Source: Acidimicrobiia bacterium (GTDB lineage Bacteria; Actinomycetota; Acidimicrobiia; Spongiisociales; ZC4RG35). From it: DNA of 56,771 nucleotides. Both the position numbers and the translations under genes were made by a program. The DNA lies in assembly GCA_012270885.1 (NCBI GenBank), contig JAAXHN010000043.1, forward strand, positions 1-56,771. Reading direction: 5' to 3'. This document shows, in pieces, positions 29,109 through 31,819 of the stretch (the stretch's first letter is position 1; each line of letters begins with the position of its first letter). The notes below the pieces were generated by a model. It was not told where the DNA came from, did no database searches, and worked only from the letters and a program-made list of their open reading frames with translations.

Positions 29109-30884
29109 ATGGCTGATCAAGAGCATCACGAGGACCTTGACCTCACAGCCGTCGCCGAAGCCTATGAAAGCTGGGAAGAGGATGAGCACCGCCGCCGCGA
29201 GGCGGCCATCCGGGACCGTGCGGAATTCCAGGGTCTTCAAATCGATCCTGACATCGACTTCTATCCCGAGGTGGCCGACCGGGAACCCGGTGACAAGAAC
29301 ATAGTCAAATGGGGATTCGACATACATCCCCAGGTGACTTTCATCGCCGCCGGATTCCTGTTGCTCTTCATGGCCGCCACCCTGATCTTCCCCGATCAAG
29401 CGAGCGACGTCTTCGGCGCGATTCTCAACTTCATCAATGAGAAGGTGGGCTGGCTGTACATCATCTCATTCAATGTCTTCATCGGCGCGGCGCTCTATTT
29501 TGCGCTGGGCAGGTACGGCAAGATTCGATTAGGTGGCCCGGGATCCCTTCCGGAGTTCTCCACCGCCGCCTGGTACGCCATGCTGATCTCAGCCGGTTTG
29601 GGCATCGGATTGATGTTCTGGGGTGTGGCAGAACCGATCTACCACCTCACGTCGCCGCCTCCCTTCTTCGACGGAGAACCTCTGACGGCAGAGGCGCAGC
29701 GAGCCTCACTGGCGACCTCCTATCTCCACTGGGGGATTCATGGATGGGCGCTGTACGGTCTGGTCGCCCTGGCTCTGGGATTCTTCGCCTACAACCGAGG
29801 ACTCCCACTGACCTTCCGCTCGGTCTTCTATCCGATTCTCGGCCCGAGGATCTACGGCGGATGGGGCAACGCGATCGACATTCTCACCGTGGTGGCCACC
29901 CTCTTCGGACTCGCCACCTCGCTGGGATTCGGGGCCGGTCAGGCGGCCGCAGGGTTGAACAAGGTATTCGGCCTCCCCTCGGACACCTGGTTCCAGATCG
30001 TCCTCATCGCTTTCATCACCGGGTTGGCAACCATCTCGGTGGTCGCTGGTCTGGACGCAGGCGTGAAGAGGCTGAGCTCGATCAACGTATGGCTGGCCGC
30101 AGCGTTCCTAGTGTTCGTGATGTTGGTGGGTCCGACTCTGTTGGTCCTTTCGCTTTATGTCGAGAGCATCGGCGTCTACATCCAGATCCTGCCGGAGTTC
30201 TCCTTCTGGAACGCCGCCCTGGTCGAGACCCAGTGGCAGCAGTGGTGGACCATCTTCTATTGGGGATGGTGGATCTCATGGTCTCCCTTCGTAGGCATGT
30301 TCATCGCCCGAATCTCCAAGGGACGCTCGGTGCGGGAGATGATCCTCGGTGTGATCATCCTCCCCTGCCTCCTGTGCTTCCTGTGGTTCGCGGTGTTCGG
30401 CGGAGCGGCCATGAATCTGCAAATGACCGGCGAACTGGACGTCGCCACCGCGGTCAACGAAAATGTAGCGACCGCTCTGTTCGTGATGTTGGAGGCCTTC
30501 CCATGGACCTTCTTCGTCTCGATAATCGGCATTTTGCTGTTGGTTTCGTTCTTCGTCACCTCTTCGGACTCAGGGTCTCTGGTGGTTGACCACCTCACCT
30601 CAGGAGGAAAGCTAGACTCGCCCAAGCCCCAGCGGGTGTTCTGGGCCTTGATGGAAGGCGCAGTGGCGTGCGTGTTGCTGTTGGGAGGTGGCCTTTCGGC
30701 GCTCCAAACGGCCGCAGTGGCCACCGGACTGCCTTTCCTATTCGTTCTCCTGATCATGCTGTGGAGCCTCAAGAAGGCCTTCGACGAAGAACTCGACCTC
30801 CTGGAGAGTCACTACGACGAGGCCATCTTCAAAGACCAACACAGCGGCTTGCTTGAGAGGCTTGGCAAAGGAGGTGCAGAGTGA
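29109..30884 (+). CDS. BCCT family (betaine/choline/carnitine) transporter, BetP/OpuD-like
   Basis: AGLGIGLMFWG, HWGIHGW, WTIFYWGWWISWSPFVGMFIARIS, FVTSSDSG. Confidence 0.96.
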   Translation: MADQEHHEDLDLTAVAEAYESWEEDEHRRREAAIRDRAEFQGLQIDPDIDFYPEVADREPGDKNIVKWGFDIHPQVTFIAAGFLLLFMAATLIFPDQASDVFGAILNFINEKVGWLYIISFNVFIGAALYFALGRYGKIRLGGPGSLPEFSTAAWYAMLISAGLGIGLMFWGVAEPIYHLTSPPPFFDGEPLTAEAQRASLATSYLHWGIHGWALYGLVALALGFFAYNRGLPLTFRSVFYPILGPRIYGGWGNAIDILTVVATLFGLATSLGFGAGQAAAGLNKVFGLPSDTWFQIVLIAFITGLATISVVAGLDAGVKRLSSINVWLAAAFLVFVMLVGPTLLVLSLYVESIGVYIQILPEFSFWNAALVETQWQQWWTIFYWGWWISWSPFVGMFIARISKGRSVREMILGVIILPCLLCFLWFAVFGGAAMNLQMTGELDVATAVNENVATALFVMLEAFPWTFFVSIIGILLLVSFFVTSSDSGSLVVDHLTSGGKLDSPKPQRVFWALMEGAVACVLLLGGGLSALQTAAVATGLPFLFVLLIMLWSLKKAFDEELDLLESHYDEAIFKDQHSGLLERLGKGGAE

Positions 30885-31819
30885 CGAAGAGATCGAACGT
30901 ACTGATTGCCGCTCTTGCGGCTTTCGTGCTGGTGCTTTCGGCCTGCGCCACCGAGGGTCTGGACCGGCCGGTGACGATTGCTCGGGCCGACTGGAGTTCG
31001 GGCCATATGCAGGCCGCCATCTACGCCCAGTTGATCGAGGAACTCGGACACGAGGTCACCGATCCCGCGTTGGCGGAACTCCAGCCCTTCTCCTTCTATC
31101 CGGCTTTGGCCGCCGCGCAGTACGACCTGTGGGCCAACGGCTGGTTCCCGAACCACGATATCTTCCTGGATGGGGAACTGGTGACCGGCCAGGCGGTGGA
31201 GTTGCCAATCGAACCCGTCGGCTATCAAGTAGCCAAGGGGGGCATTGAGGGCTTTATGGTCGACAAGGCCACGGCCGACCGATTGGGAATCACCTCCATG
31301 GCTGACGTAGCCGCCAACGCCGGCGTCTTCGACACCAACGGCAACGGCAGAGCCGACCTGATCGGATGTAACGCCGGATGGGGATGCCACACCTGGATCA
31401 ACGACCTGATCGCCGACGAGAGTTGGGGGGCCAACGTGGAGCAGATCTCCGGTAACTACGATGACCTGGTCCGAGGCGTCATCGACCGGGTGAATGCAGG
31501 TGAATCGGCATTGTTCTACGCCTATACGCCCAACTGGACCGCCGACTCCCTGGTGGATGGGCAGAATGCGTTGTGGGTGCACGAAGCCGCCGTCAACGAC
31601 ATCCGGGCGGTGGCTAACACCGACTTCCTGGATGACAACCCGGACATCCGCCGTCTGCTCGAAGTGGTGGCGATTCCGTTGAGCGACATCGCGGCTCAAA
31701 ACGCCAAGATGGCCGCAGCGGCTGAGTACTCCGACGCCGATGTGCAAGCCGACGCGGAAGCCTGGATAGCTGCCAACCGCGACAGGGTCGACAGTTGGCT
31801 GGCTATCGCCCGCGGCTGA
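30881..31819 (+). CDS. proX: ProX-type glycine betaine/proline betaine substrate-binding lipoprotein
   Basis: Lipobox [34 protein letters not shown] overlap with the BCCT stop. Confidence 0.85.
   Translation: MTKRSNVLIAALAAFVLVLSACATEGLDRPVTIARADWSSGHMQAAIYAQLIEELGHEVTDPALAELQPFSFYPALAAAQYDLWANGWFPNHDIFLDGELVTGQAVELPIEPVGYQVAKGGIEGFMVDKATADRLGITSMADVAANAGVFDTNGNGRADLIGCNAGWGCHTWINDLIADESWGANVEQISGNYDDLVRGVIDRVNAGESALFYAYTPNWTADSLVDGQNALWVHEAAVNDIRAVANTDFLDDNPDIRRLLEVVAIPLSDIAAQNAKMAAAAEYSDADVQADAEAWIAANRDRVDSWLAIARG

Follow-up and report, generated by a model that had tools for sequence, protein, structure and literature searches.

The BCCT family is the textbook case of a single-component osmolyte carrier of the LeuT fold. 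In a 56,771-nt stretch of DNA from an Acidimicrobiia bacterium (NCBI GenBank assembly GCA_012270885.1, contig JAAXHN010000043.1, positions 1 to 56,771; hereafter the window), a BCCT carrier gene is followed directly by the gene of a ProX-type binding protein of the OpuAC family. Here, the anatomy of this pair, its conservation and its recurrence in other carrier lineages are described, and it is considered rather probable that the two proteins form a single transport unit, a binding-protein-assisted BCCT.

The carrier, the binding protein and their genes

The locus contains the following features, numbered from the first letter of the window:

29109..30884, + strand: BCCT carrier gene, 591 aa, ATG start (open reading frame, Pfam, NCBIfam)
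30870..30884, + strand: translational-coupling junction, with GGAGG at 30870-30874 within the carrier's last codons, then GTGA
30881..31819, + strand: ProX-type OpuAC binding protein gene, 312 aa, GTG start (open reading frame, Pfam, NCBIfam)
26739..28823, - strand: channel fusion gene, 694 aa, with ProX/OpuAC (residues 38-327), SBP_bac_3 and an inserted pore TVGYG (533-537) (Pfam, NCBIfam)
28824..29108: divergent intergenic region of 285 bp between the channel gene and the carrier gene (sequence)
31843..31876, + strand: perfect 15-bp GC-rich hairpin between the convergent binding-protein gene and purB (RNA folding)

The two genes of the pair share four nucleotides: in GTGA (30881-30884), the GTG start of the binding-protein gene overlaps the TGA stop of the carrier gene, exactly as stated in an initial annotation of this DNA. 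That annotation was also right that no ProV or ProW gene lies near the pair; a ProV-class ATPase is absent from the whole contig, on which three ABC ATPase matches reach 81-111 bits against a cut-off of 326.6.

The carrier belongs to the BCCT carriers. It matches PF02028 with 620.3 bits (cut-off 27) over profile positions 1-485 of 485 (carrier residues 76-561) and TIGR00842 with 498 bits (cut-off 407.55), so that the whole core of 12 transmembrane (TM) helices is covered above curated cut-offs. This core is preceded by an acidic cytoplasmic N-terminus of ~70 residues and followed by a short C-terminal tail of 30 residues. The GxGxG motif of TM3 reads GLGIG (163-167) and TM8 contains a Trp-rich stretch (379-391); both are invariant in 32 aligned relatives, with W380, W385, W387, W388 and W391 unchanged. 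The study on TmaT, the trimethylamine transporter of Myroides profundi, takes these two elements to indicate Na+ coupling and methyl-ammonium substrates (PMC11708041). The earlier description of a BetP-like, Na+-coupled betaine carrier is right about the motifs but too specific as a label: the best solved match is TmaT (PDB 8ZW8) with 510 bits, against 316 bits for BetP of Corynebacterium glutamicum, and the score with the glycine betaine uptake BCCT equivalog of NCBIfam (NF047988) is 550.6 bits, under the cut-off of 650.

TmaT and BetP have family and fold in common with the window carrier. All the aromatic-box positions of TmaT are kept (W146/W151/Y154 as W208/W213/Y216, and W325/W326/W329 as W387/W388/W391), while Met105 of TmaT corresponds to Leu164. 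The carrier has Tyr rather than the Phe that marks choline transport and Trp rather than the Phe that marks dimethylsulfoniopropionate transport, according to the TmaT report (PMC11708041). The predicted substrate is a betaine-like or trimethylamine-like methylated amine. The short C-terminal tail distinguishes the carrier from the osmoregulated BetP and BetT; such tails have been associated with nutrient-type rather than osmoregulated BCCTs (PMC4744692, citing Chen and Beattie 2008), and by analogy the window carrier resembles the former. Another difference from both TmaT and BetP is that these are single-component carriers without a binding protein, whereas the window carrier gene is paired with one.

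The binding protein scores 118.5 bits against PF04069 (OpuAC; cut-off 21.2) and aligns to E. coli ProX of the ProU/ProVWX system (PDB 1R9L) with an E-value of 1.7e-35. Its score with NF008334, the equivalog of E. coli ProX of ProU, is 211 bits, just under the cut-off of 215; it falls outside that equivalog in genomic context as well, with no proV or proW in the window and its gene placed after a BCCT gene in 32 of 32 relatives. The protein has a lipoprotein signal peptide with the lipobox L19-S20-A21-C22 (Cys codon 30944-30946), an aromatic box made of W88, W167 and Y215, and a Cys163/Cys169 pair. W88, W167, C163 and C169 are invariant in 30 relatives, and position 215 is Y or W. E. coli ProX belongs to the same subfamily: its Trp65, Trp140 and Cys pair are kept in the window protein, whereas Tyr takes the place of Trp188, a position that is Trp in more distant relatives (1R9L numbering). 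The two differ in that E. coli ProX follows proV-proW, whereas the window protein is a lipoprotein encoded after a BCCT. Profile match and alignment together identify it as an OpuAC protein with an aromatic box of the methylated-ammonium kind. Separately, the window subclade is without a loop of ~30 residues bearing two Cys (alignment columns ~250-282) that is present in distant paired binding proteins and in E. coli ProX.

Upstream of the pair, and divergent from it as initially annotated, lies the gene of the ProX-channel fusion (26739-28823, minus strand; OpuAC, SBP_bac_3 and Ion_trans_2), which amounts to a K+ channel of the GluR0 type to which a betaine-type binding domain has been added. 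Many relatives of this fusion, of 640-760 aa, occur in Cyanobacteria, Desulfobacterales and Acidimicrobiia, and they account for most of the best 120 among 306 longer relatives of the binding protein. Four proteins (P0001-P0004) of 702-802 aa, in which OpuAC is the only recorded Pfam family, score 382-493 bits against the 312-aa query and may consist of two tandem OpuAC copies. The intergenic region 28824-29108 presumably holds the promoters of both the channel and the carrier genes; no sigma-70-like site was called there in a promoter scan, and an Rfam search of positions 26000-33000 gave zero matches at E <= 0.1. The terminator that had been assigned downstream of the binding-protein gene stands as a strong hairpin (31843-31876; free energy -30.6 kcal/mol, z -5.2, equalled by none of 200 shuffles) and is the probable end of the operon, but it is followed by only three U, with no U tract, and was not called by a consensus terminator scan.

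Conservation of the pair and its candidate partners in Acidimicrobiia

A scan with the binding protein, keeping one genome per species, yielded 44 loci, of which 32 are from Acidimicrobiia; the records nearest to the window locus are sponge-associated metagenome-assembled genomes of this class. The conservation of the pair, a check proposed with the initial annotation, proved complete among these relatives: the carrier lies directly upstream of the binding protein in 32/32 loci, with identities of 52-91% for the binding protein and 74-94% for the carrier. In 28 of them the stop and start can overlap by 4 nt, with GGAGG upstream; in the other four (L035, L036, L037, L043) a gap of 31 nt separates the genes and an uncleaved hydrophobic anchor stands in place of the lipobox. 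The binding protein is predicted to be membrane-tethered in both forms. Because the same gene order is found in all 32 loci and the overlap in 28, the arrangement is not due to chance. Adjacency and co-translation of carrier and binding protein across species are also the pattern seen in the TRAP, TTT and TAXI-GltS systems. The 12 loci outside the class are six cyanobacterial channel fusions and six classical proV-proW-proX operons of the Desulfobacterales type.

Each of 21 relatives has exactly one BCCT, the paired one. In a class-level even sample of 201 Acidimicrobiia genomes, an OpuAC gene lies directly downstream of the BCCT gene in six of the eight BCCT genomes besides that of the window; one of the remaining two has no such gene, its BCCT being 44% identical and of a different carrier lineage, and in the other the BCCT is fragmentary. 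BCCT genes are rare and patchy in this sample (9/201 genomes, in at least seven families), which hints at habitat-linked retention or transfer of the module.

It had been suggested that the binding protein might feed a distant ABC system. The main rival explanation is of this kind and supposes that the lipoprotein is a spare binding protein that docks on the ProW of the ProX-type ProVW importer encoded on contigs C130 and C191 of the same genome, the BCCT being co-expressed for the same class of solute. There is a precedent in Pseudomonas aeruginosa, in which CbcWV uses CaiX from a separate operon (PMC5806209, citing Chen et al. 2010). Moreover, the paired binding protein is 39% identical to the C130/C191 ProX, both being of the E. 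coli ProX type; a ProV-class ATPase is present in 27 of the 28 pair-carrying Acidimicrobiia genomes checked (21/21 relatives, the window genome and 5/6 others); and tandem binding-protein genes beside single ProVW operons indicate that these importers accept several binding proteins.

The importers, however, are already supplied. The window genome (2.6 Mb, 235 contigs, 94% complete) has two ProV-class ATPases. On contig C201, proV, a doubled proW and a ChoX-like proX lie beside a homocysteine S-methyltransferase gene, and contig C130 carries proV and proW beside genes for electron transfer flavoprotein and a dimethylglycine-oxidase-like protein. The start of C130 overlaps the start of C191 by an exact 26 nt, with the frame of a lipoprotein ProX continuous across the overlap; the two contigs are therefore neighbours in the genome, and the possibility that C130 holds a ProVW without a binding protein was rejected, since C191 supplies the ProX. 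Both importers thus have their own binding protein, and a cognate ProVW lacking one, for which a search elsewhere in the genome had been advised, was not met with in the assembly. The same holds in the relatives, where one to four ProV-class ATPases are found per genome and an OpuAC gene lies within 8 kb of 51/51 proV genes; in these 22 genomes, the window's own and 21 relatives, there is no ProVW without its own binding protein.

Some further observations were made on these importers and on the OpuAC domains around them. The ProW of C130 (350-2488, minus strand, L014; permease residues 29-306) has a C-terminal extension of ~400 residues without a family match. A hidden fused binding protein in this extension was considered and rejected, because it contains instead roughly eight hydrophobic stretches predicted as TM. 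Downstream of the full ProX on C191, an open reading frame of 101 aa (C191:1191-1496, L016) matches only the first 74 positions of the OpuAC profile and looks like a gene remnant. The 130 OpuAC domains of the 21 relatives divide into 42 within the channel-carrier-binding protein triad, 76 beside ProV and 12 further orphans; the latter occur in G002, G004, G007-G011, G014-G016 and G019, far from ProV or BCCT, several of them in open frames of 880-1251 aa that may be fusions to other domains.

Three genomes separate the candidate partners from each other. In genome G045, which has 8 contigs and is 99% complete, the channel fusion and the carrier are accompanied by a lipoprotein binding protein, its GTG start and the carrier stop overlapping by 4 nt; the only two OpuAC domains of this genome are those of the channel and of the paired protein. 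The best match in a ProV search of this genome reaches 204.7 bits against the cut-off of 326.6, the top four being of the UgpC/MalK, PhnT/PotA, TauB and GlnQ types; in the ProW search, NF008196 gave none at E <= 1e-10, and the best match, to TIGR03416 with 34.5 bits, is of the SsuC/SaoP type. An ABC core is thus not found in every pair-carrying genome: G045 is without ProV and ProW, and the other 27 checked have a ProV-class ATPase. The channel-fusion gene of G045 (L071 4550-7215) is split over the overlapping frames 4550-6781 and 6283-7215, through either a frameshift or an assembly error, and the adjoining carrier and binding-protein genes are intact. Genomes G149 and G035 have the pair and one ordinary ProVW with its own binding protein; as they contain two OpuAC domains each and no third one, they have no ProX-channel. 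The 4-nt overlap is likewise available in the pair of G035, though there, as in G045, the binding protein is of another subfamily. Because G045 is without ProVW and G149 and G035 are without the channel, the carrier is the sole partner that is always present.

Service to an ABC importer is therefore weakened, and the spare-protein explanation is considered unlikely. The pair persists in G045 without ProV or ProW, and no importer in the 22 genomes is short of a binding protein. Furthermore, a 4-nt overlap with the gene of a different transporter, kept in 28/32 species, is needless for mere co-regulation, and the fusions of OpuAC to BCCT described below, found in ten clusters, are hard to square with service to an ABC permease.

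The channel was the other partner proposed initially, and the three genes were taken together as a betaine sense-and-import locus. This locus is real in the sponge-symbiont clade: the channel fusion adjoins the pair in 31/31 evaluable Acidimicrobiia loci, the 32nd being on a 4-kb contig that is not judgeable, and it does so even after rearrangement, lying divergently upstream in 23 loci, downstream on the same strand in seven and convergently in one, while the outer flanking genes vary. Together with the 41% identity between the binding protein and the N-terminal domain of the channel, and with the known role of binding proteins as signalling inputs (PMC8050422), this adjacency is an argument for a sensor or regulator, in which the free binding protein would work with the ProX-K+ channel or modulate the BCCT allosterically rather than deliver solute. 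The channel, however, already bears a ProX domain of its own and is not an invariant partner. The pair is kept without any ProX-channel in G149 and G035, metagenome contigs L079 and L095 carry it and lack a channel gene over 3.5 kb upstream and 2.6-3.5 kb downstream, and around the cyanobacterial channel fusions L048, L050 and L060 up to 6 kb of flanking sequence per side is free of BCCT genes. Feeding of the channel is weakened by the pairs without a channel, and a sensory or regulatory role for the free protein seems to us quite improbable.

Linkage and fusion in other carrier lineages

When metagenomes were scanned with the carrier alignment, 80 loci with carriers of 41-67% identity were retrieved. 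An OpuAC gene lies directly downstream on the same strand in eight of them and in none of the 59 others with at least 1 kb of downstream sequence, 13 being not judgeable. One of the eight binding proteins is of the ProX type (L074, an orthologous triad), one is of the OsmF type, five are ChoX-like and one is untyped. Six of these loci have no ABC gene in the available flanks; L092 has proX-proV-proW upstream, and the eighth is the L074 triad. The paired binding protein thus belongs to different subfamilies in different places: ProX type at the window, OsmF/YehZ type in G045, G035 and L075, and ChoX-like in L079, L092, L095, L098 and L100.

In one lineage, the two proteins are fused. Among the best 120 of 151 matches to a ChoX-like query, two longer proteins contain both PF02028 and PF04069 (P0125, 903 aa; P0126, 855 aa), and the binding-protein part of P0126, used in turn as a query, retrieved nine clusters of 803-879 aa with both domains in 9/9. 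In all, the fusions form ten clusters at 90% identity (803-903 aa, PF02028 + PF04069), with ChoX-like domains, and belong to a sister carrier clade. The nine clusters retrieved with P0126 have various origins, one being on a 207-kb contig and another seen on 11 contigs, and their binding-protein parts are only 53-64% identical to that of P0126. The linker is conserved, with a proline-rich stretch followed by a run of Arg and a hydrophobic helix; this helix adds a predicted 13th TM pass, which would put the OpuAC domain outside the cell. The divergence of the fusions and their apparently coherent topology argue against an artefact of gene calling. Over its carrier part, P0126 shares 49% identity with the window carrier. 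An AlphaFold2 model of P0126 built from a 10-row alignment had a mean predicted local distance difference test score of 44.3 and a predicted template-modelling score of 0.37, too low for the model to be of use. No fusion was found with the window's own type of binding protein, PF02028 being present in 0 of the best 120 of its 306 longer relatives.

The distribution of linkage was placed on a quick FastTree phylogeny of 105 carriers, in which carriers shorter than 400 aa (L097) were dropped and 15 of the 32 Acidimicrobiia clade sequences were used. Clade A (17 rows, Shimodaira-Hasegawa-like support 99) contains 14 ProX-linked and three OsmF-linked carriers, and clade B (17 rows, support 100) contains five ChoX-linked, ten fused and two not judgeable carriers. 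All 60 unlinked rows fall outside these clades, 16 of them between the two. This confinement of linked carriers to two clades argues that linkage to a binding protein is a stable property of particular carrier lineages, acquired at least twice, or once with subsequent losses.

That the lipoprotein is instead an independent neighbour, a stand-alone extracellular device for buffering or retaining solute that shares only regulation and inheritance with the carrier, is very doubtful: orphan OpuAC lipoproteins without a partner do exist, such as GbsU, encoded next to betaine-synthesis genes in Halobacillus and Virgibacillus (PMC6207618), and docking between carrier and binding protein is a proposal of the present analysis, but the link recurs with three subfamilies, follows carrier clades and is covalent in one of them, all of which speaks for a specific partnership.

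A proposed transport unit and its significance

Among the options left by the initial annotation, the binding-protein-assisted BCCT is thus the one favoured, with the pair as the invariant core. In the proposed mechanism, a Na+-coupled BCCT of the LeuT fold and a lipid-anchored OpuAC/ProX-type protein would act as one unit, the binding protein being made in step with the carrier through translational coupling. Outside the membrane, the tethered or fused protein would probably capture a solute of the methylated ammonium kind, similar to glycine betaine or possibly to trimethylamine; the solute could then be handed to the carrier, or concentrated at its outer aromatic vestibule, and the Na+ gradient would drive translocation. 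The benefit would be a higher capture rate and apparent affinity in dilute surroundings, with solute scavenged at high affinity and no ATP spent. We infer all the steps that follow ligand capture, physical docking and solute hand-over included, as well as the identity of the substrate, and the carrier may need the binding protein or may merely be helped by it. The wider claim that some BCCT lineages are true binding-protein-dependent secondary transporters, two-gene or fused, and the first on a LeuT-fold, rocking-bundle carrier, is advanced more tentatively, as possible though short of probable. A complex prediction of carrier residues 60-575 with binding-protein residues 24-312, made from separate alignments, scored 0.01 against a mark of 0.32 and counts neither way.

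Several points weigh against an assisted carrier. BetP, CaiT and BetT work alone. TmaT, to which the window carrier aligns almost gap-free, also works without any binding protein, and the structure solved by its authors shows a LeuT fold (PMC11708041). According to the TAXI-GltS study, every secondary carrier known to depend on a binding protein is of the elevator type (PMC12344293), whereas the carrier of the window is a BCCT with a score of 510 bits to TmaT. The fusions and the ProVW-free genome have ChoX-like and OsmF-type binding proteins respectively, and the case for the window's ProX-type pair is therefore made by analogy and carrier phylogeny; a search for a residue or indel signature common to both linked clades and absent from unlinked carriers turned up a single weak column (Q359) and no indel. 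For a pair without ProVW, G045 is the one example, its completeness being estimated at 99%, and orphan OpuAC domains are common, the 12 mentioned above being spread over 11 of the 21 relatives. In addition, the ProX-type ABC importer of the window genome has a binding protein 39% identical to the paired one, on which importer cross-docking of the latter is conceivable, and CbcWV of Pseudomonas is a proven ABC core that uses binding proteins encoded elsewhere (PMC5806209).

The proposed unit can be compared with several known systems. CaiX and BetX, which work with CbcWV in P. aeruginosa, and GbsU of Halobacillus halophilus are OpuAC-type proteins encoded apart from ABC permease and ATPase genes, as at the window. 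They differ in that CaiX is encoded in a catabolic operon and GbsU beside synthesis genes, neither gene overlapping that of a carrier, and CaiX has a proven ABC partner. To our knowledge, no fusions to a carrier exist for CaiX or GbsU. OpuA of Lactococcus lactis and OpuF of Bacillus resemble the BCCT-OpuAC fusions in having an OpuAC domain covalently attached to the membrane partner, although that partner is an ABC permease (PF00528) and not a BCCT. The TRAP (DctPQM) and TTT systems are, like the proposed unit, ion-driven secondary carriers with a binding protein encoded beside them, on which they depend; these, however, are of the elevator type, have an additional small membrane subunit and use binding proteins of the DctP, TAXI or Bug families, and the window pair has none of these features.

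A close parallel is TAXI-GltS of Bordetella pertussis (BP0403 with GltS; PMC12344293). There too, a binding protein from the family of another transporter is translationally coupled to an Na+ symporter that usually acts solo, the binding protein is a lipoprotein, fusions occur in other bacteria, and the case was built on genomic context and fusions. The two differ in the carrier (GltS, modelled as an elevator, versus a LeuT-fold BCCT) and in the binding protein (TAXI versus OpuAC); moreover, ligand binding was measured for BP0403, whereas for the window protein it is predicted. According to the same source, TRAP and TTT were the only carriers known with soluble binding proteins before TAXI-GltS (2025), and its authors suggested that an elevator mechanism may be required, further classes being wanted as a test (PMC12344293).

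In literature searches restricted to open-access publications, no paper was found on a BCCT working with, or fused to, a binding protein. A binding-protein-assisted BCCT would therefore be a design so far undescribed for this family, and the first on a LeuT-fold carrier. If the proposal is true, a LeuT-fold BCCT with an OpuAC protein would overturn the idea that only elevators can be served in this manner and answer the question raised by the TAXI-GltS authors. The reading is directly testable, and the natural fusions offer a ready-made construct for structural and transport work. More generally, it would imply that OpuAC proteins from three different subfamilies were recruited by these carrier lineages, and it would change the annotation of 'orphan ProX' genes. 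It would also explain how sponge symbionts and other marine bacteria can scavenge methylated amines at low concentration without ATP.

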